From Nitrospirota bacterium (GTDB lineage Bacteria > Nitrospirota > Leptospirillia > Leptospirillales > Leptospirillaceae): a DNA stretch of 43,336 bases. The notes under the pieces were generated by a model that was not told the DNA's origin, searched no databases, and saw nothing but the letters and a program-made list of their open reading frames with translations. This document shows, in pieces, positions 20,028-43,172 of the stretch (the first letter of the stretch is position 1; each line of letters starts with the position of its first letter). The position numbers and the translations under genes were made by a program. The stretch spans positions 1 to 43,336 of the forward strand of contig JAJZGM010000001.1 of assembly GCA_021828525.1 (NCBI GenBank), read 5' to 3'.

Positions 20028-20068
20028 TCTCTACCCTCCTGCAACGACCATTAAAATCCTCCGGCATC

Positions 20069-20094
20069 AAAAATCCTGTCCTCACGAGGAGGAC
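20069..20094 (-). terminator. Possible Rho-independent terminator after rodA
   Basis: Minus strand reads GTCCTC-CTCGT-GAGGAC, then AGGATTTTTG. The stem is short (6 bp), so confidence is modest. Confidence 0.45.
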
Positions 20095-20149
20095 TCCATC
20101 CTAGACCTTCAGGAAATCATTCGGAAGCCGTGTGATCCGCAAACCGGCG

Positions 20150-21241
20150 TTATCTCTTTGCATAAAAGCGGACATTCATCAAAAGAGCCATGGCTCCCAG
20201 AGACACAATCATGGCCGACCCCCCATAACTCATCAGAGGCATCGGAACCCCCACGACAGGAAGTATCCCGAGCACCATCAGGACATTGATCAGAAAACAA
20301 AACAGGAAAAAACCCGTCACCCCAGCCGAAAGATAGAACCCAGCAGGGTCCCGACAATCCATGGCTGTGCGGAAACCGAACCAGACCAGATAGGAGACCA
20401 AACCCAGGAAGATCAGGGCTCCGGCAAATCCCCATTCCTCCGTAAAAACGGCAAAGACAAAATCGGTATGTGCTCCGGGAAGGAACTGGTAGCGCACCTG
20501 TGTGGCCCCGGACAACCCTTGACCGAACCACCCCCCCGATCCGACCGCCACGATGGACTGGATGGTGTGGTATCCGAGGCCGGAAGGATCGGAAGCGGGA
20601 TCGATGAAAGCCCGGATCCTGTCCTTCTGGAACTCGTGGAGGTGTGCCCAGACCCCTTCCCAGAGAACCGGAAAGAAGGCCAATCCTCCCAGGACAGAGA
20701 TGGTCACGATCCTGGAAGGAATTCCCTTCAGAAAAACGAAGACGGAAAAGATGATCATCAATTCAAATGCCGTGCCAAGATCCGGCTGCCTCGCGATCAA
20801 AAGGGCCGGGAAAACCGAGGCCAGGAGAGCGGCGGCGAAACGCCCCGGCCGTAGTGGGACATCCCGTTTTTCCGGGACGAAAAGCCATGTCAGAAAGAGA
20901 ATCAGCCCCAGGATCATGAACTCCGAGGGCTGGATCTGGAACCACCCCAGCCCGATCCAGCGTCTTGCTCCATGGCTGGCATGTCCGGCAAGAAAGACGA
21001 TGGCGAGAAGCGCCAGGACAACCCCGTATATCCAGAGGGCATTTTTCAGAAAAAGGGGATAGGGAACAAGGAGGATGCCAAGTCCCATAAGAAGGCCAAA
21101 AACCTCCCAGAGTCCCTGCTTGACAGCCAGATAGGGTGTCACGGAGAACAGGGTCAGAAGATCGATTAACAGGAGGGCGGACAGAACCACCAGAAAGGCT
21201 GGATGGACCCTGACAACATAGAGGAGAATTTTGGCGATCAA
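20150..21241 (-). CDS. rodA: Peptidoglycan glycosyltransferase RodA (SEDS family)
   Basis: 363 aa, 10-TM SEDS-like, with motifs QPSEFMILGLILF, TDFVFAVFTEEWGF and LPVVGVPMPLMSYGGS. Downstream of mrdA. TTG start at 21241. Confidence 0.9.
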   Translation of the reverse strand: MIAKILLYVVRVHPAFLVVLSALLLIDLLTLFSVTPYLAVKQGLWEVFGLLMGLGILLVPYPLFLKNALWIYGVVLALLAIVFLAGHASHGARRWIGLGWFQIQPSEFMILGLILFLTWLFVPEKRDVPLRPGRFAAALLASVFPALLIARQPDLGTAFELMIIFSVFVFLKGIPSRIVTISVLGGLAFFPVLWEGVWAHLHEFQKDRIRAFIDPASDPSGLGYHTIQSIVAVGSGGWFGQGLSGATQVRYQFLPGAHTDFVFAVFTEEWGFAGALIFLGLVSYLVWFGFRTAMDCRDPAGFYLSAGVTGFFLFCFLINVLMVLGILPVVGVPMPLMSYGGSAMIVSLGAMALLMNVRFYAKR

Positions 21242-21258
21242 ATTCCAGTGTCCCTTCC

Positions 21259-23103
21259 TCAGGATGCAACGGCCGGCGCGGGATTTCCTTTTTCTGCCAG
21301 CCGCGTAATGTAGAACATGCGGAAAATCTCCCGGGCCACAGGCCCGGCCACATCTCCGCCGTCTCCTCCGTTTTCGATCAGGACGGCAACAACGATCCTG
21401 GGATCATCGAAGGGCCCGAACCCCACAAACCAGGAGTCGGCCTTCGGACGCTTGATGCCCTTGTTTTTTCCACGGTTGCTGACGACCTGGGCCGTCCCGG
21501 TCTTTCCTGCGATGGCAAAAAACGGCAGGTCCACCGGATGGCCCGTCCCGTGCGGAGCCGCCACAACATCCCTGAGATCGCCGCGGACAATATCGAAATC
21601 CTTTTTGGGAATCGGTATGGGAGTCAGGTCTGCGGCCCCGGAACTTCCCCCTTTTTCCTTCTCCCCGAGCAGGAGATGGGGGTGCGAGAGTTGTCCCTTC
21701 ATGGCCACAGCTCCCATCAATCTGGCCATTTCAAGGGGAGTGACGGTCAGAAAGCCCTGTCCGATGGCCAGGGGGGGCGTTTCTCCCGGGTACCAGGACG
21801 TGTGGAGATATTTCCTCTTCCACTCCCTGTCAGGGACAACTCCCGAAAGTTCGGCCGGAAGATCGATTCCCGTCCGGGAGCCCAGCCCAAAAAGGCGGGC
21901 CACCCTGGCAATGGGTTCGGGACCCAGGGTCATTCCAAGGTGATAGAAGTAAATGTCGCAGGACTGCTCGATCGCCTTGTGAAGATGGAGCGTTCCATGC
22001 CCCCCCCTCTTCCAGTCGTGAAAGATCACGGATCCGACCCGGAAAGTTCCTGCGCAATGGAAGGGGGCCTCGGGATCAAGCTTGTGTTCCGTCAGACCAG
22101 CCAAGGTGGTGACGATCTTGAAGACCGAGCCTGGAGGGTAAAGCCCCTGGACGGCACGGTCCGTCATCGGGTGGTCGGTGGCATGGACGAGAGTGTTCCA
22201 GCGGGCGGAACTCATGGCCTGCGAAAGCTCTTCCGAGTTGTAGGAGGGATGGCTTGCCAGGGCAAGGATTTCTCCGTTTCTGGGATCTAACGCCACGACG
22301 GCACCACGCCTGTCTCCCAGAAACCGTTCCGCAGTCATCTGGAGCCTCATGTCGATCGTGAGCCTGAGCGAGCGGCCCTCTTTCGGTGGGTCGTTCCTGA
22401 GATTCCGGACCATCCGGCCGTGGGAGTCGACCAGCTTGCGTCTCAGGCCGGGAGCTCCCTGGAGGAGGGCGTCATATTCCTTTTCGATTCCCGACTTGCC
22501 TATTCCTGTTCCCGGAGGAAGATGGCGATAGAAAGACCCCTTGAGGTCGGACGCGGTGAAAGACCCGACATAACCCAAAAGATGGGCCCCGATATTGTCC
22601 GGGGGGTAGATCCGCTTTGGCATGACCTGGATGTAAAAACCCGGCAACCGGTAAAGATCCATGTTGACCCGGCCGACCTGGGCCATGGAAAGTCCTGTCT
22701 CCAGGGGGACGGGCATGTGGGGGGGAAGGACGAATCCCAGACGGGAGAGGGCATGCCGGAGTTTGCTCGCGGGGATTCCGAGATCAAAGGCAAGCCACGC
22801 CAGTTCGCGGCGAGGATGGCGGACCTCCCCCGGAATTTCGAAAACGGCAAAATCCGGTCCATTGCGGACCAGAACCACACCATTCCTGTCGGTAATTTCT
22901 CCGCGGAGGGGAGGGATGGGCACAACTTTTACGACATTGTCCCTGGCAAGGGCCAGATAATGGCGGTGTTTGATCACCTGGACCACATAAAGGCGAACAA
23001 CCACCACCGCGATGCCCAGCCAGAAGACAAAAATCAACCCGTTGAGACGGGCCCTCGGAGATCCTAGGATCCCATTTTTATGAAAGCGGAATTCCGATGC
23101 CAT
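21259..23103 (-). CDS. mrdA: Penicillin-binding protein 2 (elongasome transpeptidase)
   Basis: 614 aa. N-terminal anchor and transpeptidase motifs (PGSVFK = SxxK, SCD in place of the usual SxN, and a KTGTA box). Sits between mreD and rodA. Confidence 0.93.
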   Translation of the reverse strand: MASEFRFHKNGILGSPRARLNGLIFVFWLGIAVVVVRLYVVQVIKHRHYLALARDNVVKVVPIPPLRGEITDRNGVVLVRNGPDFAVFEIPGEVRHPRRELAWLAFDLGIPASKLRHALSRLGFVLPPHMPVPLETGLSMAQVGRVNMDLYRLPGFYIQVMPKRIYPPDNIGAHLLGYVGSFTASDLKGSFYRHLPPGTGIGKSGIEKEYDALLQGAPGLRRKLVDSHGRMVRNLRNDPPKEGRSLRLTIDMRLQMTAERFLGDRRGAVVALDPRNGEILALASHPSYNSEELSQAMSSARWNTLVHATDHPMTDRAVQGLYPPGSVFKIVTTLAGLTEHKLDPEAPFHCAGTFRVGSVIFHDWKRGGHGTLHLHKAIEQSCDIYFYHLGMTLGPEPIARVARLFGLGSRTGIDLPAELSGVVPDREWKRKYLHTSWYPGETPPLAIGQGFLTVTPLEMARLMGAVAMKGQLSHPHLLLGEKEKGGSSGAADLTPIPIPKKDFDIVRGDLRDVVAAPHGTGHPVDLPFFAIAGKTGTAQVVSNRGKNKGIKRPKADSWFVGFGPFDDPRIVVAVLIENGGDGGDVAGPVAREIFRMFYITRLAEKGNPAPAVAS

Positions 23104-23593
23104 GTTGTTTTCGGGACGGAGGACCGGCTGTCCACCCCAGGGATCTCCTCACAAAAACGAGCATCATCCCCAGGAGTCCTGTCACCCCGTCCATCACCAG
23201 CCAATCTTTGAATAATTGTGTCTCAAGGGGGTAATCAAGAAGCTTCCTGACAAGAAGTCCAGCCCCCATATCGATACCGAGGACGATCCATACCATAAGG
23301 TACTGCCTGACACCAGAGCCTGTCGAAAAATCCGAAAGCCGTGAAAAGAGCCAGGCTTCGGAAAGATACAGAAGCACCCAGAAGGATCCCGGCCCATAGG
23401 AAACAAGAGAGAGGACGAGACCGGCCAGTAAGCCCAGGAGAAGGAACCCGTACTTCTCCTTCTTCTGCAGAAGGAAAAAAAGGAACAACGGAACCGGATT
23501 GATCCACGCAGACAGGTAAGGAAACCATCGAAGTCCGGAAACCGCCAGAACAATAAGAAGAACCAGAATCATGGCCCGGACCGGAAGGTTCAC
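23078..23593 (-). CDS. mreD: Rod shape-determining protein MreD
   Basis: 171-aa hydrophobic protein between mreC and mrdA. The GTG start overlaps the mreC stop (GTGA). Assignment rests mostly on position and hydrophobicity. Confidence 0.8.
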   Translation of the reverse strand: MNLPVRAMILVLLIVLAVSGLRWFPYLSAWINPVPLFLFFLLQKKEKYGFLLLGLLAGLVLSLVSYGPGSFWVLLYLSEAWLFSRLSDFSTGSGVRQYLMVWIVLGIDMGAGLLVRKLLDYPLETQLFKDWLVMDGVTGLLGMMLVFVRRSLGWTAGPPSRKQHGIGIPLS

Positions 23594-24450
23594 TGTCGCC
23601 CCTTTCCAAGAAGGGGTTTTTCTGTCCAGTCGAGCGGCGGAACAAGGACCATGACGGCATACAGGGACTCGAGCTTCTCGGCACTATCGAGCCTGATCGA
23701 CTGAAACAACTGGTGACGGGAGTTTCCGCTCCGGACGACGGTACCGATCAGTTGATCCGGCGGGAAGAAGCCGTCTTCTCCGGTCGTCACCACATGCACG
23801 CCATTTTCTGTCGACGCCATGGAGGGAATATATTCGAGCCTGAGAAAGTGCCCTGTCCCCCGTCCCCGCACAAGTCCATTCTGCCCCGAATCCTGAAGTC
23901 GTCCTTCCAGCGCAAACATCGGATCCTCGATCCAGAGGACCTGCGAGAATCCGGAAAAAACCCGCACAACATAACCGACGATGCCGTTGGTCCCGATCAC
24001 TCCATCCCTGACGTGGACTCCCCTTTTTTTCCCGCAGTCCAGAAGAAGGGTTTTGGGAGCGGCCGTCGGATTGTCCGCAATCACATGACAGGCAATTTCC
24101 CTTTGCGGAATCCTTTTCTTAAGGTCGAGCAAAGCCTTGAGATCCTCACTTCTCAGGAAAAGCTCCCGGTCGTGTTGAAGAGAGTTCCTGAGGGTCTCGA
24201 CCTCCAGCCGGAGCGTGCGATTTTCTTCTTCGCTCCTGACAAGATGAAGATAATGGGTCCAGAGTCCGGTCGATCCTTGCGAGAGGTCTGTGACTTCCAA
24301 AAGGACGAGACGGAAAGCCTTCAGGGGAGGGTCAAGAACCCAGCGCCGGAAAAAATCCGGATAGAATCCGAGAACCACAAACATCACCAGAACAATCAGA
24401 AAAACCGGAACGGCCTTAATGGATTTTGGTCGTTTCAGGGAAGGTCGCAC
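23590..24450 (-). CDS. mreC: Rod shape-determining protein MreC
   Basis: 286 aa. N-terminal TM, a coiled-coil segment (ENRTLRLEVETLRNSL) and a beta-rich C-terminal domain. Follows mreB. GTG start. Confidence 0.9.
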   Translation of the reverse strand: MRPSLKRPKSIKAVPVFLIVLVMFVVLGFYPDFFRRWVLDPPLKAFRLVLLEVTDLSQGSTGLWTHYLHLVRSEEENRTLRLEVETLRNSLQHDRELFLRSEDLKALLDLKKRIPQREIACHVIADNPTAAPKTLLLDCGKKRGVHVRDGVIGTNGIVGYVVRVFSGFSQVLWIEDPMFALEGRLQDSGQNGLVRGRGTGHFLRLEYIPSMASTENGVHVVTTGEDGFFPPDQLIGTVVRSGNSRHQLFQSIRLDSAEKLESLYAVMVLVPPLDWTEKPLLGKGRQ

Positions 24451-24458
24451 CGTTTCGC

Positions 24459-25490
24459 CTAGTCTCCGAGTGTGACCTTTCTCAAGACATCGAGTTCCTC
24501 AAGAGTCTTCCCCGTGCCGATGACGACAGTCGTCAGGGGATCGTCCACGGTGATGATGGGGAGACGGATCTCGTCCCGTATCCGGACGTCAAGCCCCCGG
24601 AGCATTGATCCCCCGCCCGTCAGAACGATTCCGCGGTCAATGATATCGGCCGAGAGCTCCGGAGGCGTGTTCTCAAGGGTCTTCTGCACAATCGACACGA
24701 TACTGTTGATGGTTTCCGAAAGGGCCCCGCGTATTTCCTCTTCCGTGATCTTGAGGGTTTTGGGAAGACCGGTGATGAGATCCCTCCCCTTGATGATCAT
24801 GACGTGGCCCTCTTTCTGAGGACAGGCGGATCCGATCTCCATCTTGATCCGCTCCGCCATCGAGTCCCCTATCAGAAGGTTGTGCTGCTTCTTGATGTAG
24901 GAGATGATGTCCTCGTCCATCTTGTCACCGGCCACTTTGATGGACTCGCTGTATACCGTCCCCCCCAGGGAGATCACAGCGACATCCGTCGTGCCTCCTC
25001 CGATGTCTATCACCATGTTGCCGGAAGGCTCCATGATGGGAAGCCCCGCCCCGATTGCCGCCGCGAGAGGTTCCTCAATCAGGTAGACCTCCCTGGCTCC
25101 GGCCATGCGGGCCGAATCCTTCACCGCCCTCTGGGCCACCATCGAAATTCTGGACGGGACGCAGATCACCATCCGGGGACGGACAAAAGCCGACCGCCGG
25201 TGGACCTTGTTGATGAAATAGGACAGCATCTGCTGGGCGATGTCGGGATTGTCGATGACGCCGTTCCGGACCGGCCGCACCGCCACGATGTTTCCCGGCG
25301 TCCTGCCCAACATTTTCTTGGCTTCCCGTCCGATGGCGAGGACCGAGCCCGACTTCTGGTCCATGGCCACGATCGAGGGTTCATTGATGACGATCCCCTG
25401 GTCACGCACGTAGACCAGAGTATTGGCCGTTCCAAGATCGATCGCCAGATCCTGGGAGAGAAACCCGAAAAGATTTGCGATGAGCCCCAA
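24459..25490 (-). CDS. mreB: Rod shape-determining actin homologue MreB
   Basis: 343 aa, DLAIDLGTANTLVYV...IDIGGGTTDVAVISLGG...GIVLTGGGSMLRGLD. Apparent TTG start at 25490; there is no in-frame ATG nearby. Confidence 0.97.
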   Translation of the reverse strand: MGLIANLFGFLSQDLAIDLGTANTLVYVRDQGIVINEPSIVAMDQKSGSVLAIGREAKKMLGRTPGNIVAVRPVRNGVIDNPDIAQQMLSYFINKVHRRSAFVRPRMVICVPSRISMVAQRAVKDSARMAGAREVYLIEEPLAAAIGAGLPIMEPSGNMVIDIGGGTTDVAVISLGGTVYSESIKVAGDKMDEDIISYIKKQHNLLIGDSMAERIKMEIGSACPQKEGHVMIIKGRDLITGLPKTLKITEEEIRGALSETINSIVSIVQKTLENTPPELSADIIDRGIVLTGGGSMLRGLDVRIRDEIRLPIITVDDPLTTVVIGTGKTLEELDVLRKVTLGD

Positions 25491-29817: not shown

Positions 29818-30501
29818 TCAATGCCGTCTTCCCTCCCCCTCTTCGCCAGGGTCAAGGATCCCTCCCATCCACTCCCCGATGGCCCCGATCTCCGGAAGGC
29901 AGACGGAATGGCCCATGAGATACTGTTGCCACTCACGGACCCCTTTCCCGCCCAGTCTCTCCAGGGCCTCGAAGGTCTTCCGGCCAAGCCTGAATGGGAC
30001 AACCGGATCCTCCGTCCCGTGAACCATGAGCAAGGGTGTCGGACTGTCGGACAGGGGAACCCCGGCATCACTGGGAAGATAGGTGGAAAGGGCCAGGACG
30101 CCCCCCCAGCGCTCCCCCCCTTCTCCGAAGACGGTCAGAAGGGCGATCACTCCCCCCTGGGAGAAGCCTGCCAGAATGATCCTTTCCGGGGGGATCCCCC
30201 GGTTCATTTCATGTCTTGCCAGCTCCCGGACGTGTCCCACCGAGCGGCGCATTCCCTCGAGATCGGGATTCCTGGAGAGGTCAGGGAGGGCCACATCGTA
30301 CCAGGCCCGCATGGGCGCCCCCCCGTTGACTCTGACCCGCATGACCGGGGCATGGGGGAAGACGAAGCGAAGGGGAACCTGCGGCAGGGGAATCTCGGGG
30401 ACGATCCCGGCGAAGTCGTGGCCGTCGGCTCCGAGCCCGTGGAGCCAGATGACGGCCCATCGGGGATCGGGGCCGGTTTCGAGGGTGACCGACTCAAGCA
30501 T
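29818..30501 (-). CDS. Alpha/beta-hydrolase carboxylesterase (phospholipase/carboxylesterase family)
   Basis: [16 protein letters not shown], nucleophile elbow GFSQGG, and late HGTEDPVVP and GH residues. ATG at 30501 lies just inside the yyaL 3' end. Confidence 0.85.
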
Positions 30502-32533
30502 GGGCTCCTCCCTCTTCCCCGATCCCGGAGAGTCTTTCCAGAAGGGTCTCCGGGCCGTCATCGACCGAAGAGAGGCATCCGAAGGTGCCGCAGATCCAGG
30601 CCCGGGTCGATCCCTGTCCGGCCGGACTCTTGCCTGCGATTTCCCTTCCCTCCGCAGAAAGGATCGTCCAGACGGGAACGGGAGCGGACAGGGCCCGCCT
30701 CTGCCACCGGGCGGCCTCCCTCCCCTGGAGGATCACCGTCGGAGCCCCGGCAAGTCTGTAAGACAAGGCGGAGAGGAGGGTATCGAAACCTTCGGGACGG
30801 GTGTTGAAGGTTCCCGCAAAGAGGGTGAGGGCGCGTTCGGCCGACTCGAGCATGGGAAGGTCCCCGAGAAGGGATCCAAGGCGAAGGAGGCTCCGGACCG
30901 CCACTCCGTTCCCGTTGGGAAGGGACTGGTCATGGCCGGTCTTGATCCGGCACAGGAGCTCCTCGTGGTCCCTGGCCGTAAAGAAGAATCCTCCTTCCTG
31001 TCGGTCCTCGAAGGCATCGAGAAGGACCGCCGCGATCTCCCGGCCCCACAAGAGACGGTCGTCGGAATATTGGGCCGAAAGGCCTTCAAGGAGGGCGTCG
31101 AGAAGAAAGGCATAGTCGTCGAGATAGGCCGAAAGACGGCTTTCTCCCTGCGTCCTGACGGCCAGGAGCCGGCCCTCTTTCCAGAGATGGGTCCGCACGG
31201 CCGAAAGGCCGTCCTGGCCTCGCCTGATCCACTCTGGCCGGTCGAGGATCCGTCCCGCTTCGAAGAGTCCGCGCAAGTAGAGCGCATTCCAAGCTGTCAG
31301 GATCTTCTCGTCGCGACCCGGATGGATGCGCCTCTCCCGGGTCTCGAAAAGCCGTCTTTTGGCGGACGCGAAGAGTCTCCGGAACTCTTCTTCCTCCCCT
31401 CCCTCCTCCCTGGCGAGTTCTTCCGGTGTCCGGACAAGGACCGGATTCCAGAACTGGTGCTCGAAATTGGGCTCCCGGGAAAACCCCAGACAGGCCAGGG
31501 CCACCCGGCGCTCCTCTCCCGCCAGGACCTCCTCGACTTCACGACGGGTCCAGCGGGCGAACTTCCCCTCCTCCCCCTCCGAGTCGGCGTCAAGGGAGGC
31601 ATACCAGAGCCCTTCAGGAGCCAGCATCTCCCGGTCCGCCCAGGCAACGATCTCCTCCGCCACCCTCCGGAAGAAGGGATCTTTCGAGATTTCAAAGGCC
31701 CGGGCATAGAGCCCAAGAAGCGGCCCGTTGTCGTAGAGCATCTTTTCGAAGTGGGGAATCTCCCATCGTTCGTCGACACTGTACCGGGCGAAACCTCCGC
31801 CGATCTGGTCGCAGATCCCTCCCCGCCCCATCTTCCGGAGAGTGAAGAGGGCCATTTCGCGGTCTTTTTCCAGGGGAGAGTCGAGCAGGAAGGAGAGTCC
31901 CTGGGCATGGGGGAATTTCGGGGCCCCCCCGAACCCTCCCTCGACCGGGTCAAAGACCTCGCGAAGATGGGCGCGGAGCGCCTCGACCGGGGCCGGAGAA
32001 AGGGAGGCCCCCTCCTGGCGTTTCGGAACGAGGAGGTCAAGGGTCTCGATCACCGAGCGGTTTTCCGGACTTTCAAGCTGCTCCCGGTGCTCGGAATAGA
32101 AGGTGTGGATCCGGGTAAGAACTTCTGAAAATCCTGGCAGACCGAAGCGCCCCGTCTTGGGAAAATAGGTCCCGGCGGCAAAGGGGACCTTCCGTCCGGT
32201 CAAAAAGACGGTCAGGGGCCAGCCGCCCCCTCGCCGGGCCAGAAGCTGATGGGCGGTCTGGTAGATATGGTCGAGGTCGGGGCGCTCTTCCCGGTCCACC
32301 TTGATGTTGATGAAGAGATCGTTCATAAGTCTCGCTGTCTCCGGATCCTCGAAGGACTCGTGAGCCATCACGTGGCACCAGTGGCAGGCAGCATACCCGA
32401 TGGAGAGAAGAACCGGCTTTCCCGTCTCCCTTGCCGCCTTCCAGGCCTCCTCTCCCCAGGGATACCAGTCCACGGGGTTGTGGGCGTGCTGTCGAAGGTA
32501 GGGACTGGTCTCCCGGCCCAGGCGATTTGACAT
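30494..32533 (-). CDS. yyaL: Thioredoxin-domain protein YyaL (DUF255 + six-hairpin/N-acylglucosamine 2-epimerase-like domain)
   Basis: [22 protein letters not shown]...[22 protein letters not shown] is the characteristic DUF255 N-terminus, followed by a long alpha-helical remainder. ATG at 32533 preferred. Confidence 0.88.
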
Positions 32534-32691
32534 GAATTTCCTCCCTTTCCTCAAGAATATCCTGTTCGGCGTGATGGCTCACTGTACAATGCTGAGGTTT
32601 CATTCTAACGGCCCTTCTCAGTCCTCGTCCAATGGACCCCGGTTGAAGCCCCCGGGCCAATCCGGTATGATCCCTCGAAAAAGGAGACGAG

Positions 32692-34611
32692 ATGGGGGTT
32701 TTGGAGGCGACAGACCGCAGAAAGGATTTTTCCCGGTCCCCGGGGAGTTTCGCCGGTCCCCGGGATCTGGGTCCTCTGGGAGCCCATCCGTCAGAGACGG
32801 GAACACTCTTCCGGGTCTGGGCCCCGAAAGCCCCCTCCCTCCATCTCGTCCGGGAGGGAGGGGGACCCCGGAGCGGGATTCCGATGGACCAGGAGGCGGA
32901 CGGGTATTACCGCCTCTTTCTGGAGGGGGCCCTTTCCGGAACGACCTACCGCTATCTGATCGACAGCAGAACCCTTCGCCCCGATCCCGCCTCCCGCCTC
33001 CAGCGGGAAGGCGTCCATGGCCCCTCGACGGTCTGGGGGGCCCCGGAAGCCTTGCCCGTCGCCTTTTCCGGCCATGCCCTTCCGGATCTGGTCTTCTACG
33101 AGCTCCATGTGGGAACCTTCTCTCCCACCTCCGATTTCGACGGGATTCTTCCCCACCTCGACCATCTCGTCCGTACCGGCATCACGGCCCTCGAACTCAT
33201 GCCGGTGGCCCAGTTTCCAGGAAGGCGGAACTGGGGCTACGACGGCGTCTTCCCCTTCGCCGTCCAGTGGTCCTACGGGGGACCGGACGCTCTCTTGCGT
33301 CTCGTCCGGGAATGCCACCTCCGGGGCCTCTCGGTCTTTCTCGACGTGGTCTACAACCATCTGGGTCCCGAAGGGAACTATCTCAGGGATTTCGGTCCCT
33401 ATTTTTCCACGACGACCCGGACCCCCTGGGGGGACGCCCTGAACTTCGACGGTCCGGACAGCGACCATGTCCGCCACTTCTTCCTGGAACATCTCCGGAC
33501 CTTGACACTCCTCTTCGATCTGGACGGATTCCGGCTCGACGCGATCCACGCCATCCGCGACCAGTCTCCCCATCCCTTCCTGGCCGACCTCTCTCATCTG
33601 GCCAAAAATATTGCCTCCCGGAGGGGCCGCCCTCTCCATCTCGTCGCGGAATCGAACGCGAACGACCGCCGGACCGTCCTGCCCGTCCGGGAGGGCGGCC
33701 TGGGTTTCGATTCCCAGTGGAGCGACGACTTCCACCACGCCCTGCACGTCTTCTTTACCGGAGAACGAACCGGCTACTATCGGGATTTTTCGGGAAAGGA
33801 TGACCTGGCAGAGGCCCTGTCGAAGGGATTTGTCTACCGGGGACAATACGCTCCCTCCTTCCGTTGCCGCCGGGGCTCGGACTCTCTCGATCTGCCTGGG
33901 CAATCCTTCGTCTTCTTCGCCCAGAACCATGACCAGACGGGAAACCGGATGCAGGGAGAAAGGCTGGCCTCCCTCCTTCCCCCGGAGGCCCTTCCGGCGA
34001 TTGCCGCCCTGGTCCTCCTGTCGCCAGGCCTTCCGCTCCTCTTCATGGGAGAAGAGTACGGAGAGACCAATCCCTTTCTCTATTTCACCGACCACGGGGA
34101 TCCCGACCTCATCCAGGCCGTCCGGAAAGGGCGCAGGGATGAATTTGCCGCCTTTTCCTGGTCGGGGGAGGTGCCCGATCCTCAGGATCCCCTGACCTTC
34201 GAGCGTTCGCGGCTTTCTCTTACGGCTCCCGGAAGCCTTCTCTCAAAATTTCAGGAGGATCTTCTCCGCTTTACCGCCCGGCTTGCCGAAATCCGAAGGA
34301 CCCGGCCCGCCCTGTCTCCTCCTGGGCGGATCGAAAGCCCCCAAAACCGTGTCTTCTCCCCAGCCTCCGGGACCCTGGCCCTCTTCCGGGGCGACTCCTC
34401 CTCCGGGATCCTCCTCCTGGCCAACCTCTCTGGGACCCCCCGCCTTTTGGGACCCTTTCTTCCCGGAGAATGGGACCCCGAATCCTCCGACCTCCTCCTG
34501 GACTCGGCCGCCTTTTTCGGAACCCCCTCCCGCCCCTTCTCCCCTTCCTCCAAGACAGAGTTCCTATTCGAGCCCTTCCGTGTCCTTGTTCTCTCCGGGA
34601 GAAATCGATGA
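32692..34611 (+). CDS. treZ: Malto-oligosyltrehalose trehalohydrolase
   Basis: 639 aa GH13. FRVWAP...YELHVGTFS...LELMPV..F.G..NWGYDGV...DVVYNH, GFRLDAIHAI and an AESN region. AAGGAG lies 5 nt before the ATG. Confidence 0.93.
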   Translation: MGVLEATDRRKDFSRSPGSFAGPRDLGPLGAHPSETGTLFRVWAPKAPSLHLVREGGGPRSGIPMDQEADGYYRLFLEGALSGTTYRYLIDSRTLRPDPASRLQREGVHGPSTVWGAPEALPVAFSGHALPDLVFYELHVGTFSPTSDFDGILPHLDHLVRTGITALELMPVAQFPGRRNWGYDGVFPFAVQWSYGGPDALLRLVRECHLRGLSVFLDVVYNHLGPEGNYLRDFGPYFSTTTRTPWGDALNFDGPDSDHVRHFFLEHLRTLTLLFDLDGFRLDAIHAIRDQSPHPFLADLSHLAKNIASRRGRPLHLVAESNANDRRTVLPVREGGLGFDSQWSDDFHHALHVFFTGERTGYYRDFSGKDDLAEALSKGFVYRGQYAPSFRCRRGSDSLDLPGQSFVFFAQNHDQTGNRMQGERLASLLPPEALPAIAALVLLSPGLPLLFMGEEYGETNPFLYFTDHGDPDLIQAVRKGRRDEFAAFSWSGEVPDPQDPLTFERSRLSLTAPGSLLSKFQEDLLRFTARLAEIRRTRPALSPPGRIESPQNRVFSPASGTLALFRGDSSSGILLLANLSGTPRLLGPFLPGEWDPESSDLLLDSAAFFGTPSRPFSPSSKTEFLFEPFRVLVLSGRNR

Positions 34612-37502
34612 AGCCCTACACAAGCGGAGGGACCGGCCGGCTCCCCGTCACGACCTACCGGCTGGGCTTTCACCGGGGCTTCAGGCTCACGGCGGCCACG
34701 CGTCTTCTCCCCTATTTCCAGAGGCTTGGCATCACCACCCTCTATGCCTCTCCCCTCTTTGCCGCCCGCTCCGGAAGTACTCACGGATACGACCTGATCG
34801 ATCCCACCCGCCAAAATCCTGAAATCGGGACCCCCCAGGACATGGAGCGCCTCTCCCGGGGGCTTTCGGCCCGGGGGATGGGGATGATCCTGGACATCGT
34901 CCCCAATCACATGGCGGCGCACTTCGAAAATCCCTGGTGGCGTGATCTTCTCGAGAACGGAGAAGCCTCCGCCTTCTCCATGTTCTTTGACGTGGACTGG
35001 AATCCTCCCCAGGAGGCGCTGGCCCACCGTATCAGCCTTCCCGTCCTGGGAGACTCCTACCGGAAAGTGCTGGAGAACCAGGAACTCGAACTGGTCTTTA
35101 CCAAAAACGGCTTCGCCGTCCGCTACTACGAGACCCTCTTCCCTGTCGATCCGGCCACCCTGCCCCCCGTTTTGGGAAAGATCCGGGATCTTCTCCGTTC
35201 CCAGGCCCAGAAAGAAGACGAAGAGGCACGACAAACCCTCGACCTGTTGCTCGCACGGACAGAGTCCCTGCCCGAGCGGCGGGCCGATCCCCTGGCCCGC
35301 CGCCAGAGGTCCCGGGCCCGCAGGACCATCCAGCGTCTGCTCAAATCGCTCCATCGGGACAGTCCCTCTTTCCGGGAGGCCCTGGAAAAGGTTCTGGGCG
35401 AATACCGGGGAATCCGGGGCATTCCCTCCTCCTTCGACCGGATGGACGGCCTGCTTTCCTCCCAGGTCTACTGGCTCTCCCACTGGAAAACGGTCACGAG
35501 AACCCTGAACTACCGGCGTTTTTTCGACGTGGCGGACCTGGCGGGGGTCCGGATGGAAGATGACCGGGTCTTCGAGGCCTTCCACCGCCTTGTCCGGGAG
35601 TGGGCCGGGAAAGGCTGGATCGACGGAGTCCGGGTGGACCATGTCGACGGCCTCCGGGATCCCGCCGACTACCTTCACCGGCTCTCCCGGCTTCTCCACG
35701 AGGAACGTCCGGACCACCCCCCGTTGATCTGGATCGAGAAGATCCTGGGCAGGGACGAAGTCCTGCCTGACTGGCCGGTCATGGGAACGACCGGGTACGA
35801 ATTCGCAGCCCGGGTCCTGGATCTCTTCACCGACCCGGGGGGAGCCCGACTCCTGAAGAAATGGTACGAAACGCGTCTCTCGCCGGACCTGAGCTTTGAG
35901 GACATTTCCTACCAGCAAAAAAAGGCCGTGGCCGAGACGCTGATGGGAGGAGAGCTCAGGCGGCTGACACTCCTTCTCGAATGGATCGCCATGGAGGAGC
36001 GCGACGTCAGGGAAACGGGATTCCGCGAGCTCCAGACCGGTCTGGTCGAGGTCACGGCCTGCCTGGACGTCTACCGGACCTATATCCGGGAAGACAGCGT
36101 TCCGGATGAGGCGAAAATGCGTCTCGCGAAGGCGCTCGATCGGGCCAGGCACCACCATCCCATCCGGAGGCAGGGACTCTTCCGCTTCTTTGAACGGGTT
36201 CTGACCCAGGGGCTTCCTGCAGGCGCCAGCCCCGAAAAGAAGCAACGCTGGACAAACTTTGTCCTCAAGTGGCAGCAGTTTTCCGGAGCCGTCATGGCCA
36301 AGGGCGTCGAGGATACGGCCCTCTACCTCTACGCCCCCCTTCTCTCCGCCAACGAGGTGGGAAACGATCCCGGCCTTCCCCCGACAGCTCCGGAGGACTT
36401 CCACCGGTTCAACCGGAAACGCCTCGAAGACAACCCCCTTTCCCTCTCCGCAACCTCGACCCACGATACGAAACGGAGCGCCGACACGAGGGCCCGGATC
36501 GCCGCCCTCTCCCTTCATGGCGAAGAATGGATCGCCCGGGTCGAACGATGGCGGCTCTTGAACCGGAGGCTCCGCCATCCCCACAGGGGGGGTCCGGAGC
36601 TCCCCGATCCTTCGCTTGAACATTTCCTCTACCAGACCCTGATCGGCGCGTGGCCCCTGGAACCCCGGGACGAGAGCTTCGATCGCCGCATCGACGCCTA
36701 TCTTGTCAAGGCACTCCGGGAATCCAAGCAGAACACCAACTGGATCACCCCCGATCCCGCCTACGAGGAGGCGGTCTGCCATTTTGCCCGGGAGATCCTC
36801 CGGACCGACCGGAAGAGCCCCTTCCTGGAAGACTTTCTCTCATTCCAGCAGAAAATCGCCCGGGAAGGAGCCCGGATCTCCCTGTCCGCGCTCGTCCTGA
36901 AGGCCACCTCTCCGGGGATCTTCGACCTCTACCGGGGAGAGGAACTCTGGGATCTCTCCCTGGTCGACCCGGACAACAGACGGCCCGTGGACTATTCCCT
37001 TCGCGCCCGTCTTCTGGAATCCGTCATAGAACAATGGTTGAGGAGGCCGGCCGGGGCCTTCCGGGACTTCCTCTTGCACTGGACCGATGGCCGGATCAAA
37101 CTTTTTCTCACCTGGATCCTTCTCTCCGTCCGCAAAAATCATCCGGACCTCTTCCTCTCAGGAGAATACCGTCCTCTCTCCCCCGGATGGGAGCAGGATC
37201 ATGGTATGCTGGGGTTTGTCCGGAGTCTTCCGGACCGTGACCTTCTGGTGGTTGTGGCCCTGTCCGGCAGAAACCGGCTGGAGGAGGGATCCGGGATCAC
37301 CGGCCGGGAGGATCCCTCCGGGGAGATCCCCCTGCCGGAGGGAGGGTCCGTCCCCTGGGTTCATCTCTTTTCGGGAGAGACCCTTCATCCGTCGATCTCC
37401 GACCGTGGTCCCGCCCTTCCCCTTGCCCGGGCCATGGGAAGACTCCCCTTCACCGTCCTTTACCGGGGTCCGGACCCGGTTTTGCCCAAGGAGCGCCCCT
37501 GA
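34608..37502 (+). CDS. treY: Malto-oligosyltrehalose synthase
   Basis: About 964 aa. TTYRLGFHRGFRLTAATRLLPYFQRLGITTLYASPLFAARSGSTHGYDLID is the TreY N-terminal signature. The ATG overlaps the treZ stop (ATGA). Confidence 0.93.
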   Translation: MKPYTSGGTGRLPVTTYRLGFHRGFRLTAATRLLPYFQRLGITTLYASPLFAARSGSTHGYDLIDPTRQNPEIGTPQDMERLSRGLSARGMGMILDIVPNHMAAHFENPWWRDLLENGEASAFSMFFDVDWNPPQEALAHRISLPVLGDSYRKVLENQELELVFTKNGFAVRYYETLFPVDPATLPPVLGKIRDLLRSQAQKEDEEARQTLDLLLARTESLPERRADPLARRQRSRARRTIQRLLKSLHRDSPSFREALEKVLGEYRGIRGIPSSFDRMDGLLSSQVYWLSHWKTVTRTLNYRRFFDVADLAGVRMEDDRVFEAFHRLVREWAGKGWIDGVRVDHVDGLRDPADYLHRLSRLLHEERPDHPPLIWIEKILGRDEVLPDWPVMGTTGYEFAARVLDLFTDPGGARLLKKWYETRLSPDLSFEDISYQQKKAVAETLMGGELRRLTLLLEWIAMEERDVRETGFRELQTGLVEVTACLDVYRTYIREDSVPDEAKMRLAKALDRARHHHPIRRQGLFRFFERVLTQGLPAGASPEKKQRWTNFVLKWQQFSGAVMAKGVEDTALYLYAPLLSANEVGNDPGLPPTAPEDFHRFNRKRLEDNPLSLSATSTHDTKRSADTRARIAALSLHGEEWIARVERWRLLNRRLRHPHRGGPELPDPSLEHFLYQTLIGAWPLEPRDESFDRRIDAYLVKALRESKQNTNWITPDPAYEEAVCHFAREILRTDRKSPFLEDFLSFQQKIAREGARISLSALVLKATSPGIFDLYRGEELWDLSLVDPDNRRPVDYSLRARLLESVIEQWLRRPAGAFRDFLLHWTDGRIKLFLTWILLSVRKNHPDLFLSGEYRPLSPGWEQDHGMLGFVRSLPDRDLLVVVALSGRNRLEEGSGITGREDPSGEIPLPEGGSVPWVHLFSGETLHPSISDRGPALPLARAMGRLPFTVLYRGPDPVLPKERP

Positions 37503-39169
37503 TGGACGATACCAGACCCTGGATCTTCCGCGGAATCCTCTATGAGATCTATATCCGGAGCTTCTACGACAAATCCGGGGATGGGGTGGGAGATTTCCGG
37601 GGGATTCTCGAACGGATGGACTACCTCGCCCGCCTGGGCGTGAAGGCCCTCCTCCTCAACTGCCCCTTCCAGTCCTTTCCCGGAAAGACCCGCCACCCCC
37701 TGACCGACTGGATGCGCCCCGACCCCTCCCTGGGATCCCTCTCGGAGCTCCTGGTGATCATCGAGGCGGCCCACGGAAAAGGTCTCCGGGTCCTGGCCTC
37801 CCTTCCGATCAATGCCACCAGCAACTGCAACACCTGGTTTCTTGAATCCCGGAACCGGAGTTCCCGCTATCTCCGGAAAAGCTTTTTCTGGTCGGACCGT
37901 CTGAAGCTCCCCACCTCCCCCGACCAGGAGACACCGGAGATCTCGAACTGGGCCAAGGATGAGGAAACCGGGCAGTACTACTGGTACCAGGACCACAAGG
38001 ACGAACCGGCGATCAACTACGGAGATCCCGAAATCCTGGAGGAGATCCGGCGCGTCTTCGAACACTGGTTCACGCTGGGGATCGACGGCTTCCGTCTGGC
38101 GGGATCGGGCCGCCTCCACCGTCTGGGAAAGAACGGGATCGAACTGGTCACCGATCCCTTCCGCCAGATCCAGGGCATCCTCCTTCCACTCAAAAACTCC
38201 TACCCGGACCGGGTCTTCCTTTTCGAAACGGGCCAGCCTCCCAAGGGAGCCTTCGGCCAGGATTCCCGTCTCTTTTACCACTTCAACGGATTCTTCCCTT
38301 CGGTGATCCGGTCGGTCAGGGACGAAAACAAGGAACCTCTCGATCAGGCCATCGCCTCGGGGGAACGGGAGGCCCACAGCCGGAAGGACCTCCCGGTCCG
38401 CTGGACCCTCGACCTCAGAGAGCGCTCCGAGGAGACCTTCGAGAAGTTCCTCGAGGAGGACGGAGGGGATACGGTCTTTCCCCTGGAGGCGGAAGGCTCA
38501 AAGGACCGGCCGGTCCTGGCCCGCGTCGCCCGGATCATGGAGAACGGCCGAAGACGCATCCAGCTTGCGGCCAGTCTCTTCTTCACCTTTCCGGGCATTC
38601 CCGTTCTCTATTACGGCGATGAAATCGGGATGGGGGACCATCCCCATCTTTCGGGGCGCAACCCCGTCCGGACGCCCATGCAGTGGTCCTCCGACCGGAA
38701 CGCCGGATTTTCGTCCGCCGATCCCGAGGAGCTCTACAACCCCGTCATCGACGATCCCCTTTACAGCTACACCATGGTCAACGTCGAGAGCCAGGAACGC
38801 TTCGTCGATTCCCATCTCTGGAACGTCCGCCGGATGATCGAGGTCAGAAACCGCCAGCCGGCCCTCTGGAGCCAGGGGCAGTTCGGTCTGGTCGAAACCA
38901 CCCACCCCGCCCTCTTCGCCTTCTACCGGCAGTCGGGAGACGAGACCTGTCTCCTGGTCCACAACCTCTCCAAGACCTCCGTCTGCGGTGAGCTCAAACT
39001 CGGAAAATTCGCCTCCCTCGTTCCCCGGGAACTCTTCGGAGGAGCCATGTTCCCCCGCATCCCCCGCCATCCCTATCTCATCACCATGACCCCCTACTCC
39101 TTCATCTGGTTCGAGCTTCTTCCCGGAACCACCCGGGCCCGGAAGAAAAAGGCGGAGGTGACCCCATGA
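37502..39169 (+). CDS. GH13 trehalose-synthase-like paralogue lacking key catalytic residues (putative pseudoenzyme)
   Basis: 555 aa, collinear with the downstream TreS. Region I reads SLPINATS (TreS: ELVLNHTS), region II GIDGFRLAGSG ([11 protein letters not shown]), and region IV WTLDLRERSEETFE ([14 protein letters not shown]). The ORF is intact and overlaps both neighbours by 1-4 nt. Confidence 0.85.
   Translation: MDDTRPWIFRGILYEIYIRSFYDKSGDGVGDFRGILERMDYLARLGVKALLLNCPFQSFPGKTRHPLTDWMRPDPSLGSLSELLVIIEAAHGKGLRVLASLPINATSNCNTWFLESRNRSSRYLRKSFFWSDRLKLPTSPDQETPEISNWAKDEETGQYYWYQDHKDEPAINYGDPEILEEIRRVFEHWFTLGIDGFRLAGSGRLHRLGKNGIELVTDPFRQIQGILLPLKNSYPDRVFLFETGQPPKGAFGQDSRLFYHFNGFFPSVIRSVRDENKEPLDQAIASGEREAHSRKDLPVRWTLDLRERSEETFEKFLEEDGGDTVFPLEAEGSKDRPVLARVARIMENGRRRIQLAASLFFTFPGIPVLYYGDEIGMGDHPHLSGRNPVRTPMQWSSDRNAGFSSADPEELYNPVIDDPLYSYTMVNVESQERFVDSHLWNVRRMIEVRNRQPALWSQGQFGLVETTHPALFAFYRQSGDETCLLVHNLSKTSVCGELKLGKFASLVPRELFGGAMFPRIPRHPYLITMTPYSFIWFELLPGTTRARKKKAEVTP
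38606..38712 (+). repeat. Nucleotide-level conserved block shared with treS (copy 1)
   Basis: CTCTATTACGGCGATGAAATCGGGATGGGGGAC...ATGCAGTGGTCCTCCGACCGGAACGCCGGATTTTC closely matches 40288-40394, in frame and without gaps. Confidence 0.7.
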
Positions 39170-40968
39170 CGGAACTCGGCGGGGCCACCGACTGGTACAA
39201 GGACGTCATCATCTATGAAATTCCCGTCAAGTCCTTTTTCGACTCCGACTGCGACGGGATCGGGGACTTCGTGGGCCTTTCCGGAAGGCTCGATTATCTG
39301 AAGGGGCTGGGCGTAACGGCCCTGTGGCTCCTTCCCTTCACCGACTCGCCCCTTAAAGACGACGGCTACGACATCCGGGACTACTACAACCTCTATCCCC
39401 CCTACGGAGCGATGGAGGAATTCCAGCAGTTCCTCTCCCTGGCCCACGACCGGGGAATCCGCATCATCACCGAACTGGTGCTGAACCACACCTCCAATAC
39501 CCATCCCTGGTTCGTCTCCGCCTCGGCCTCCCGCTCCTCCCCCTTCCGGGACTACTATGTCTGGAACGACTCCCCCGACCGCTACAAGGGGACCCGGATC
39601 ATCTTCAGCGACACGGAGAAATCGAACTGGACCTGGGAACCCCGCACCCGCCAGTATTACTGGCACCGCTTCTTCCACCACCAGCCCGACCTGAACTTCG
39701 ACAACCCGAAGGTCCAGGAGGAGCTCCTCAATGTGGTCAAGTTCTGGTTTTCCTTAGGCGTGGACGGCCTCCGGTGTGACGCCGTCCCCTATCTCTTCGA
39801 GCGGGAAGGGACGAACTGCGAAAATCTCCCGGAGACCCATGCCTTCATGAAGCGTCTCCGGAGCGAGGTCGACCGGGAGTTTCCCGGGCGCATGCTCCTG
39901 GCCGAGGCCAACCAGTGGCCCCAGGATGTGCTTCCCTACTTCGGAAAGGGCGACGAGTTCCACATGGCTTACCACTTCCCCCTCATGCCCCGGCTCTTCA
40001 TCGCCATCGCCCGGGGCGACCGGACGCCCATCATCGACATTCTCGAACAGACTCCGGACATTCCGGAGGGGTGCCAGTGGGCGATCTTCCTGAGAAACCA
40101 CGACGAGCTGACGCTCGAGATGGTCTCCGACCAGGAACGGGACTACCTGTGGTCCACCTATGCCCAGGATCCCCGGATGCGTCTGAACATCGGAATCCGA
40201 AGGCGGCTTGCCCCCCTCATGCAGAACGACCGCCGGAAGATCGACCTGATGCACAGTCTTCTCCTGACCCTTCCCGGAACACCCATCCTCTATTACGGGG
40301 ACGAAATCGGGATGGGGGACAACATCCATCTGGGAGACCGGAACGGCGTCCGGACTCCGATGCAGTGGTCGTCCGACCGAAACGGGGGATTTTCCCGGGC
40401 CAACCCCTCTGACCTCTACGCCCCGCTCATCCAGAACCCCATCTACGGCTTCCAGGTCGTCAACGTGGAGAACCAGGCGCGCTATCCCACCAGCCCCCTC
40501 AACACCCTCCGGCAGATGCTGGCCGTCCGCCAGGAGGCCCGCCTCTTCGGGCGGGGGCGCATGACTCTCCTTCCCACGAAAAACCGGAGCATCCTGGCCT
40601 ATCTCCGGGAGATGGGGGAGGATGTGGTCCTGGTGATCAACAACCTCTCCGACCGGACCGAGTCGGTCACAGTCGACTTGAAACGTTTTAAAAACCATGT
40701 CCCCGTGGAGCTTTTCGACAAGAACCCCTTTCCTCCGATCCGGAGTTCCCGTTTCCACTTCACCGTGAGCCCGTTCGGATTTTTTTGGCTCAAGCTTCTG
40801 TCTCCCACCCACCCGGCCTCTGCCCCGGGCCTCCATCCTTCCCGTCGTCTCGGGGACCCCTCCGGCATGGGAAGCGTCCCGGCAAGACCCACCCGCCGAA
40901 ACAAAGCGCCTCTCCGGGCCACTCCCTCCCCGGGTCCCTCCTCCGAAGGCGGAGGGACTCCACCATGA
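39166..40968 (+). CDS. treS: Trehalose synthase (maltose alpha-D-glucosyltransferase)
   Basis: 600 aa. [60 protein letters not shown] and [10 protein letters not shown] give a full GH13/TreS motif set. It ends in a roughly 55-aa Pro/Ser/Gly/Arg-rich tail. Confidence 0.92.
40288..40394 (+). repeat. Nucleotide-level conserved block shared with the treS-like paralogue (copy 2)
   Basis: See 38606-38712. Confidence 0.7.
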
Positions 40969-43172
40969 GAGTCCTGCCTGGAAAACCCCATCCCCTGGGA
41001 GCCACCTGGGACGGCAAGGGGGTCAACTTTTCCCTCTTCTCCGAAAACGCCGAAGGGGTCGAGCTCTGCCTCTTTCCCGGGCGGGAGGCCACGACCGAAT
41101 CGGTGCGCCTTCCCCTCACCGAACGGACCAACCACATCTGGCACATCTCCCTTCCCGAGGCCCGGCCGGGATGGCTCTACGGCTACCGCGTCCATGGACC
41201 TTATGACCCGGCCCGGGGCCTCCGCTTCAACCCCGCCAAGGTCCTGCTCGACCCCTATGCCAAGGAGGTCGCCCGGCGCGTCCGCTGGGACGAGACGCTC
41301 TTTGCCTACCCGCTCGGGAACCCCGACGGGGACCTGGTCCCGGACAGCCGAGACAATGCACCGGGAGCCCCCCTCGGGGTGGTCGTGGATCCCGCCTACA
41401 TCTGGGGAACCGACCGTCCTCCCCGGACTCCCTGGTCCGAGACAGTCATCTACGAAACCCATGTGAAGGGATTCACGGCCCGTCATCCGGACCTCCCCCC
41501 GGAGCTTCGGGGGACCTATGCGGGACTTGCCAGCGAACCGGTCATCGACTACCTCCGCTCCCTGGGAGTCACCGCCGTCGAGCTTCTTCCGGTTCACCAC
41601 CACGCCAGCGAGCACACGCTCGTCACCCGGGGTCTCACCAACTACTGGGGATACAACACACTCTCCTATTTCGCTCCGGACAACAGGTACGGATCGGGGA
41701 CCATGACCCCCTCCAACGAATTCAAGATGATGGTCCGCTCGCTCCACGACGCGGGCATCGAGGTCATTCTCGACGTGGTCTACAACCACACCTGCGAGGG
41801 AAACCACCTGGGTCCGACCCTGTCGCTTCGGGGAATCGACAATTCGACCTACTACCGGCTGATGGAGAAGGAACCCCGCTTCTACATGGACTACACCGGA
41901 TGCGGCAATACCCTGAACATGCGTCACCCCCAGGTGCTCCAGCTCATCATGGACAGCCTCCGGTACTGGGTCCTCGAGATGCATGTGGACGGCTTCCGCT
42001 TCGACCTGGCCAGCGCCCTGGCCCGCGAACTCCATGAGGTCGACAAGCTCTCCGCCTTCTTCGATGTGATCCAGCAGGATCCCGTCGTCTCCCAGGTGAA
42101 GCTGATCGCCGAACCCTGGGACATCGGAGAGGGGGGCTACCAGGTCGGAAACTTTCCCTCCCTCTGGACCGAGTGGAACGGGCTCTACCGGGACTCCATC
42201 CGCCGCTTCTGGAAGGGGGACGGCCGCCAGGTGGCAGACCTTGCCACCCGGCTCTCCGGGAGCAGCGACCTCTACGAGCAGGAGGGACGGCGGCCCCACG
42301 CCAGCATCAACTTCATCACGGCCCATGACGGATTCCCGCTGAACGACCTGGTGAGCTACAACGAAAAGCACAACGAGGCCAACCTGGAAGACAACCGGGA
42401 CGGGAACAGCGACAACATCAGCTGGAACTGCGGGGAGGAAGGACCGACGGACAAGCCGGAGATCCGGCAGCTCAGGCTGCGCCAGATGAGAAACTTCCTG
42501 GCGACCCTCATGCTCTCCCAGGGGGTTCCCATGATCTGCGGGGGCGACGAGATCGCCCGGACCCAGCGGGGAAACAACAATGCCTATTGCCAGGACAACG
42601 AAACCACCTGGTACGACTGGGCCCTCTCCTCCGACCAGAAGAATCTCCTCGGATTCACCCGCTTCCTCATCGCGCTGCGCCGGTCCCAGCCGACTCTCAG
42701 GCGACGGAAATTCTTCCATGGCAGAAAGATCCGCGGCACAGAGATCAAGGACATCTCCTGGTTCTCGCCCACCGGACACGAGATGACCGACGAGGAATGG
42801 AACGCCGACTTCGTCCGGACCCTGGGGGTCCGCCTCTCCGGAGAGCTGATCGACGAGAGGGACAGCCTGGGACGGGCCGTCACGGGAGAGACCCTCCTGA
42901 TCCTCTTCAACGCCCACTACGAGTCGGTTCCCTTCGTGCTTCCCGCCCACCGGAAGGGGGCCCACTGGTCCCTTCTTTTCGATACCACCCACCCCTCTGC
43001 CGGCCTCCGTCCTCCCCGGAAGGCCTTCTTTCGGGGAGGACGGACCTACAACGTCCAGGGACGCTCCCTGGCTCTCTTTGTCCTGCAGGAGACCCAGACC
43101 CGGTCCGACGAGGGGAAAACCCCGCTCCGTCCCGCTCCGGAAGGGACTTCTCCGGCCGGCTCCCCGCCATGA
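40965..43172 (+). CDS. glgX: Glycogen debranching enzyme GlgX/TreX
   Basis: [37 protein letters not shown] is the typical GlgX N-terminus. GH13 motifs DVVYNHT, GFRFDLA, EPWD and FITAHDGF are present. The ATG overlaps the treS stop (ATGA). Confidence 0.93.

Follow-up and report, generated by a model that had tools for sequence, protein, structure and literature searches.

The first 43,336 nucleotides of contig JAJZGM010000001.1 from a Nitrospirota bacterium (GenBank assembly GCA_021828525.1; Leptospirillia), referred to here as the window, encode two collinear trehalose synthase (TreS)-like proteins in tandem. We found that the upstream gene, which we call pTreS (37502..39169, plus strand; 555 aa from an ATG start), is a catalytically degenerate paralogue of the canonical treS directly downstream (39166..40968, plus strand). 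Because pTreS is a full-length dead paralogue, is under purifying selection, and is always co-encoded and probably co-translated with TreS, we propose, with a probability of about 0.5, that it serves oligomeric TreS as a paralogous subunit or regulator without catalytic activity of its own, a reading that draws on its sequence and on analogy with known pseudoenzyme partners.

pTreS aligns collinearly with the downstream TreS across 540 residues at 34% identity (BLASTP, E=2e-104), and its substitutions were checked by BLASTP, by phmmer against solved TreS structures, by MAFFT with ~120 TreS sequences, and by hmmalign to a TreS profile, the MAFFT and hmmalign alignments together covering ~200 TreS. 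All of the losses listed in the initial annotation were reproduced, with the three independent alignments (phmmer, MAFFT, and hmmalign) in agreement. The subsite -1 loop of TreS, DDGYDIxDY, is replaced by RHPLTDWMR (residues 64–72; 37691..37717, plus strand, as are the motifs that follow), converting Tyr68/Asp69 of the window TreS to His65/Pro66; His65, Pro66, and Leu67 are shared by the whole pTreS clade (100%), where TreS has Tyr/Asp/Ile. Region I of glycoside hydrolase family 13 (GH13) reads LPINATS (37802..37822) in place of LNHTS, with His108 of TreS replaced by Ala105. Region II reads GIDGFRLAGSG (38078..38110; LRCDAVP in TreS), the nucleophile Asp205 being replaced by Ala200 and Arg203 being kept as Arg198; a few orthologues have Ser instead of Ala at the nucleophile position. 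Region IV reads LDLRERSEETFE (38408..38443; LRERSEE versus LRNHDE in TreS), in which Asn-His-Asp, including His312/Asp313 of the window TreS, has become Glu307-Arg308-Ser309; this motif is nearly invariant across the pTreS clade and served as a search pattern. The domain B signature of the oligo-1,6-glucosidase/TreS subfamily (region V) has changed from HQPDLN to DEPA[IL]N (Gln to Glu168 and Asp to Ala170; EPAIN in the window protein). The acid/base Glu, which had been described as the sole survivor, is indeed kept in the window pTreS (Glu247 of TreS as Glu242, within region III, VFLFETGQ, 38213..38236), but its survival does not hold for the whole clade, as one sub-lineage (P0016/P0017/L041) has Gly there.

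Across all pTreS orthologues the catalytic signature by hmmalign is xHAR[A/S][E/G]RS, versus D/GYHRDEHD in TreS, and pTreS therefore lacks an intact Asp/Glu/Asp triad of active GH13 enzymes as well as both subsite -1 His residues. pTreS scores 396.7 bits against the TreS equivalog model TIGR02456, below the cutoff of 678.35, whereas the adjacent TreS scores 878.6 bits and carries the full DYHRDEHD signature, as expected of the real trehalose synthase that it had been taken to be. The catalytic residues of Mycobacterium tuberculosis (Mtb) TreS are D238, E280, and D350, and its D238A variant is inactive yet still tetrameric and able to bind a trehalose (substrate) analogue (PMC11019547). Ala200 of pTreS aligns by phmmer with the engineered Ala of this variant (PDB 8UQV). 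Because the catalytic residues are lost and Mtb D238A is inactive, maltose–trehalose isomerase activity is predicted to be absent from pTreS, which by its sequence is a pseudoenzyme with a full-length TreS fold, unable to carry out the GH13 double displacement.

The scaffold, by contrast, is largely recognizable. pTreS matches PF00128 (Alpha-amylase, 172 bits) and PF16657 (Malt_amylase_C, 53 bits), and its AlphaFold2 model (predicted local distance difference test score 76.9; predicted template modeling score 0.81) has a (β/α)8 catalytic-type domain and a C-terminal β-sandwich, with the TreS structures 4LXF, 5JY7, and 3ZO9 as its best Foldseek matches (template modeling score ~0.8). pTreS retains 73 of the 154 positions that are universally invariant in TreS, and 54 fixed differences fall at otherwise conserved TreS positions; the segments YEI..F.D..GDG.GD and RTPMQW..DRN.GFS are preserved, in line with the conserved scaffold noted initially. 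Given that the catalytic residues are gone yet the model superposes on TreS structures, pTreS keeps the TreS fold but is predicted to have lost its chemistry.

We estimated the ratio of nonsynonymous to synonymous substitution rates (dN/dS) pairwise by the Nei-Gojobori method (NG86) for 85 unsaturated genome pairs (dS up to 1.5). The median was 0.137 in pTreS, indicating purifying selection, and 0.103 in the co-resident TreS. Nonsynonymous change is ~1.7-fold higher in pTreS than in TreS, and conservation of 95% or more is reached in 40% of the alignment columns of pTreS, compared with 65% in TreS. No genuine frameshift or stop was found in pTreS among ~21 genomes; the apparent frameshift in L032 (UBA4572) proved to be an assembly artefact, a 7-nt gap beside "nn" bases. 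The initial view that the gene is maintained rather than decaying is thus sustained, and the pattern in the sequences is one of a burst of change followed by constraint.

pTreS has ~40 orthologues at 55%–95% identity, all from metagenome-assembled genomes (MAGs) of Leptospirillia/Nitrospirota and all with the same substitutions. A search of 5.8 billion proteins returned 23 pTreS clusters (56%–88% identity, 709–1161 bits), below which scores fall sharply to ordinary TreS (~37% identity, 371 bits), and an exhaustive phmmer search of 1.84 billion 50%-identity representatives returned a single pTreS cluster (947 bits), with everything else at or below 352 bits. Because there is only one cluster among these representatives, the pTreS family is narrow and isolated. 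Scanning genomes with the clade motif RERSE[ED]TFE gave 36 loci. Of these, 22 belong to Nitrospirae, Leptospirillum, or Leptospirillia MAGs; tblastn found no TreS-like gene in the remaining 14, which lie outside Nitrospirota and whose number is close to the ~17 chance matches estimated for the pattern. The pTreS sequences are monophyletic in a neighbor-joining tree; a long stem leads to them, and Leptospirillia TreS and other TreS are equally far away (0.69 versus 0.69), the donor lineage of the duplication not being resolvable from this tree. Protein searches placed no cultured Leptospirillum protein in the pTreS clade, although the accessions of L. ferriphilum Sp-Cl themselves were not directly compared; this cultured strain is reported to carry treZ, treY, and three genes annotated "alpha-amylase/trehalose synthase (ble/pep2)" on one contig (PMC4769503).

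Several MAGs with the gene pair are labeled "Leptospirales bacterium", an order of Spirochaetota, and their loci are near-identical to those of "Nitrospirae bacterium" MAGs (dS ~0.1 between L001, GCA_054637315.1, and L030); the label looks like a mislabel of the GTDB order Leptospirillales. One MAG, FK3.bin81, has two distinct pTreS genes on separate contigs (L023 and L030), whose products are 68% and 73% identical to pTreS of the window, a sign of either two species mixed in the bin or two copies in the genome. In NCBI the orthologues are named "alpha-amylase family glycosyl hydrolase".

In the window, treZ, treY, pTreS, treS, and glgX form a compact plus-strand operon, and the base composition and third-codon-position G+C content (GC3) of pTreS are like those of its neighbors. 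The treY stop TGA (37500–37502) overlaps the pTreS ATG at 37502 by 1 nt (TGATG), and the pTreS stop TGA (39167–39169) overlaps the treS ATG at 39166 by 4 nt (ATGA, 39166–39169), both as originally read; the frame between them is unbroken. A Shine-Dalgarno sequence, AAGGAG (37488..37493, plus strand), lies 8 nt 5' of the pTreS ATG within the 3' end of treY, and another, GGAGGTG (39154..39160, plus strand), lies 5 nt 5' of the treS ATG within the 3' end of pTreS.

The coupling to TreS that had been claimed held in related genomes: pTreS is directly upstream of a canonical treS at every locus with both genes on the contig. The 4-nt overlap occurs in 17/19 genomes, the close relatives L001 and L030 having a 29-nt gap instead, and it also occurs in L041, L043, L044, and L046. 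The pair is found in four contexts, and the overlap is kept in all of them: treZ-treY-pTreS-treS-glgX with glgE/pep2 nearby (the window and L001); treZ-treY-pTreS-treS-glgE-pep2 (L003 and L046); a bare pTreS-treS pair flanked by hflX-like and M16 peptidase genes (L041 and L043); and a bare pair by a sigma-54 activator, a toxin-antitoxin pair, and a group II intron (L044/L045). The nearest outgroup TreS (65% identity, L042) is in a treY-glgE-treS-mak arrangement with no pTreS neighbor. Because the pair persists in four neighborhoods, two of which have no nearby treYZ, glgX, glgE, or pep2, the conserved functional unit is pTreS with TreS, rather than pTreS with TreY/TreZ or GlgE.

What would be expected of a pseudoenzyme partner at the sequence level is therefore found in pTreS: catalytic loss with the fold kept, purifying selection, and strict co-occurrence with treS. 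Passage from homomer to heteromer after duplication, with one subunit losing catalysis, has precedents in glucan metabolism in ISA1/ISA2 and GlgC/GlgD. TreS is an obligate oligomer, and mycobacterial TreS is a tetramer whose β-sandwich domains pair and dock the maltokinase Pep2 (PMC6509496). In the mechanism we propose, pTreS would be retained by selection through working with the competent TreS encoded directly downstream; the two proteins would be made in coupled fashion from their overlapping genes and would assemble as a hetero-oligomer, replacing or adding to the usual TreS homo-oligomer. The dead subunit may give scaffold, stability, or regulation, controlling maltose–trehalose interconversion, possibly with ligand sensing through its remodeled former active site. 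We infer both the physical association with TreS and the regulatory effect on it from the sequences and their arrangement. A more specific proposal, which we regard as distinctly speculative, is that, within a heteromeric trehalose synthase, pTreS acts as the regulatory subunit that senses a ligand, with a positively charged pocket that binds, for example, maltose-1-phosphate or glucose-1-phosphate and gates flux between trehalose, a compatible solute, and GlgE-pathway α-glucan.

Several observations weigh against a TreS partnership. The partner TreS looks fully self-sufficient, and all pTreS sequences derive from MAGs. Tight overlaps are general in the operon, with treY/pTreS showing one too, and translational coupling is therefore not specific evidence for a complex. 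Replaced active-site residues are no more conserved than background (24/64 versus 120/387, Fisher p=0.31), so that their conservation does not argue positively for a new ligand site. Complementary degeneration (subfunctionalization) was considered and rejected, as only 3 universally conserved TreS positions are changed in the partner TreS but kept in pTreS, against 54 in reverse. Among these 3 are pTreS Glu275/TreS Gly284 and pTreS Tyr525/TreS Phe530 (numbering of the window proteins); Glu275 adjoins the equivalent of Mtb Arg320, a Pep2-contacting residue.

pTreS could instead bind a sugar or sugar phosphate (maltose, trehalose, maltose-1-phosphate, or glucose-1-phosphate) by itself, as a sensor, buffer, or carrier with no stable TreS complex, which we consider unlikely. 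Some of the sugar-contacting scaffold remains (Arg198, Glu242, Asp373/Glu374, and Arg390), acidic or aromatic catalytic residues have given way to conserved basic or small ones (His65, Ala200, Arg204, Arg256, and Arg308), and removal of the nucleophile, together with Arg/His gained close to the anomeric position, would fit a 1-phosphate ligand. Binding of the trehalose analogue by Mtb TreS-D238A (PMC11019547) is compatible with this, and the occurrence of other degenerate TreS-like domains in fusions with TIR, caspase, or maltokinase domains suggests that they have been reused for binding or sensing. However, the substituted sites do not stand out from background conservation (p=0.31), canonical glucose binding is unlikely in the absence of the stacking Tyr of subsite -1 and of both His residues, and strict treS adjacency and overlap in all contexts are better explained by direct partnership. 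Another possibility, to which we give little weight, is that pTreS docks Pep2, and perhaps GlgE, to TreS, replacing the role of the β-sandwich of mycobacterial TreS. Mapping three mycobacterial TreS:Pep2 contact residues (PMC6509496) gave a mixed outcome: the Mtb P511 position is Pro469 in 41/43 pTreS, where the co-resident TreS has Arg, Gln, Thr, or Asn, and the R536 position is Lys491 in 43/43 pTreS and Asp in 20/20 co-resident TreS, but at the R320 position it is TreS, not pTreS, that has Arg. Genes for glgE and pep2 follow treS or lie nearby in some loci, and degenerate TreS domain–maltokinase fusions exist elsewhere (P0124 and P0188); yet three positions compared across distant phyla are weak evidence, the contact positions vary among TreS generally, and the pair is also found with neither pep2 nor glgE nearby.

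Altered chemistry, in which pTreS would act on some other substrate through, for example, Glu242, Glu307, Glu310, or His65, seems to us similarly improbable. His65, Ala105, Glu307, Arg308, and Ser309 are strictly conserved at former catalytic positions, slow evolution of the clade after a long stem is the pattern expected after neofunctionalization, and some annotated pseudoenzymes reportedly proved active later, according to one published account. Against this, we know of no GH13 member that works without the nucleophile Asp, the remaining acid/base Glu has been lost in a sub-lineage that still keeps the gene, and constraint on pTreS is looser than on TreS. Neutral decay of a pseudogene that is open by chance would account for the lost catalytic residues and the faster nonsynonymous change, but it is effectively refuted by a dN/dS of 0.14 at dS up to 1.5, by a frame that is intact in ~40 orthologues down to 55% identity, with the single frameshift lying at an assembly gap, and by conservation of the Shine-Dalgarno motif and the 4-nt overlap.

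Degenerate TreS-like proteins unrelated to the pTreS clade were also encountered (P0165, P0187, P0151, P0183, P0124, P0188, P0171, P0180, and P0181). In P0165 and P0187 the TreS-like part is followed by a C-terminal TIR domain, in P0151 and P0183 it is preceded by an N-terminal caspase/Peptidase_C14 domain, and in P0124 and P0188 a degenerate TreS domain is joined to a maltokinase. PADLOC matches in the fusion proteins were limited to the TIR and caspase parts, and a PADLOC scan of pTreS gave only a generic GlgB-like match and no defense association. Bacteria may have reused dead TreS-like domains repeatedly as sugar-sensor or scaffold modules.

The other operon genes in the window are, all on the plus strand, treZ (malto-oligosyltrehalose trehalohydrolase, 32692..34611; TIGR02402, 626.8 bits), treY (malto-oligosyltrehalose synthase, 34470..37502; TIGR02401, 836 bits), and glgX (glycogen debranching enzyme, 40785..43172; TIGR02100, 1032.8 bits). 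The treY and glgX coordinates are those of the longest open reading frames, with hidden Markov model matches starting at about residues 43–59 and at residue 66, respectively. Because the GlgX match begins only there, the glgX start is probably overcalled, with the true start probably lying near or after the treS stop. The window TreS has a C-terminal tail of ~55 residues rich in Pro, Ser, Gly, and Arg past the β-sandwich (40800–40968, residues ~545–600), a region that overlaps the 5' extension of the longest glgX frame. Upstream of treZ and divergent from it is a DUF255/thioredoxin-domain protein of 686 aa (30494..32554, minus strand; PF03190, 236 bits). Farther away, a minus-strand cell-shape cluster (18462..25490) provides ordinary housekeeping context, with mreB (24459..25490), mreC (23590..24450), PBP2 (21259..23103), rodA (20150..21241), and RNase E/G (18462..20027).

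TreS sits at the switch between the stress protectant trehalose and the GlgE α-glucan pathway, and it is both a mycobacterial drug target and an industrial biocatalyst. If our proposal is true, pTreS would be the first bacterial GH13 pseudo-subunit of its kind, kept by selection and always found with a live TreS, and the pair would be a clean system for the evolution of a homomer into a regulated heteromer. Although it reaches no further than uncultured Leptospirillia, the case is clean, robust, and testable. On the practical side, the auto-annotation of pTreS proteins as "maltose alpha-D-glucosyltransferase/alpha-amylase" in Joint Genome Institute (JGI) records would lead to trehalose synthase genes being over-counted in Leptospirillia genomes.

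The initial annotation knew of no described role for a TreS pseudoenzyme partner, and we likewise found no published description: literature searches on inactive TreS paralogues and bacterial GH13 pseudoenzymes gave nothing relevant, and the accessible part of a 2024 Chem Rev review of prokaryotic α-glucan enzymes mentions no such protein. That a dead paralogue can partner a live enzyme is well established, whereas the TreS instance, its motifs, and its lineage restriction appear undescribed. Compared with TreS itself (EC 5.4.99.16, TIGR02456; 4LXF, 3ZO9, 5X7U, and 4TVU), pTreS has the same three-domain GH13 fold and length, 33%–38% full-length identity, the N-terminal and RTPMQW scaffold motifs, the region II Arg, and the C-terminal β-sandwich. 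Unlike TreS, it is without the nucleophile Asp, the transition-state Asp, both His residues, and the DDGYD Tyr/Asp, has EPA[IL]N in place of QPDLN, and falls in a long-branch clade of its own, at equal distance from every TreS sampled. It shares with Mtb TreS-D238A (8UQV) the Asp-to-Ala change at the nucleophile, within RLA(A/G), although the mutant has one substitution and pTreS has 54 fixed differences at conserved positions.

Among pseudoenzymes, the ectodomains of the SLC3 proteins rBAT and 4F2hc are likewise oligo-1,6-glucosidase-like GH13 domains without catalytic residues, and rBAT chains match pTreS by phmmer (~1e-40) and by Foldseek. SLC3 proteins, however, are eukaryotic, with a transmembrane anchor and an amino-acid transporter partner, whereas pTreS is bacterial and paired with TreS; we found no hydrophobic segment in pTreS (maximum 19-residue Kyte-Doolittle mean 1.34) and no consistently adjacent transporter gene at the pTreS loci examined. 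Another parallel is plant and algal ISA2, a non-catalytic GH13 paralogue in a heteromer with catalytic ISA1, a complex that is experimentally proven. ISA2 is eukaryotic, falls in a different subfamily of GH13, and does not share an operon with its partner, but it too is a GH13 pseudoenzyme of α-glucan metabolism, kept by selection and working with an active paralogue, as pTreS would do in its putative complex. In Firmicutes, GlgD is a non-catalytic paralogue of the ADP-glucose pyrophosphorylase GlgC, is encoded adjoining glgC, and forms a heteromer with altered properties. GlgD has a nucleotidyltransferase fold, and its gene comes after the catalytic gene where that of pTreS comes before, yet it offers the bacterial counterpart of the arrangement we propose: a glucan-pathway pseudo-subunit encoded beside its catalytic paralogue, with which pTreS, like GlgD, may form a heteromer.

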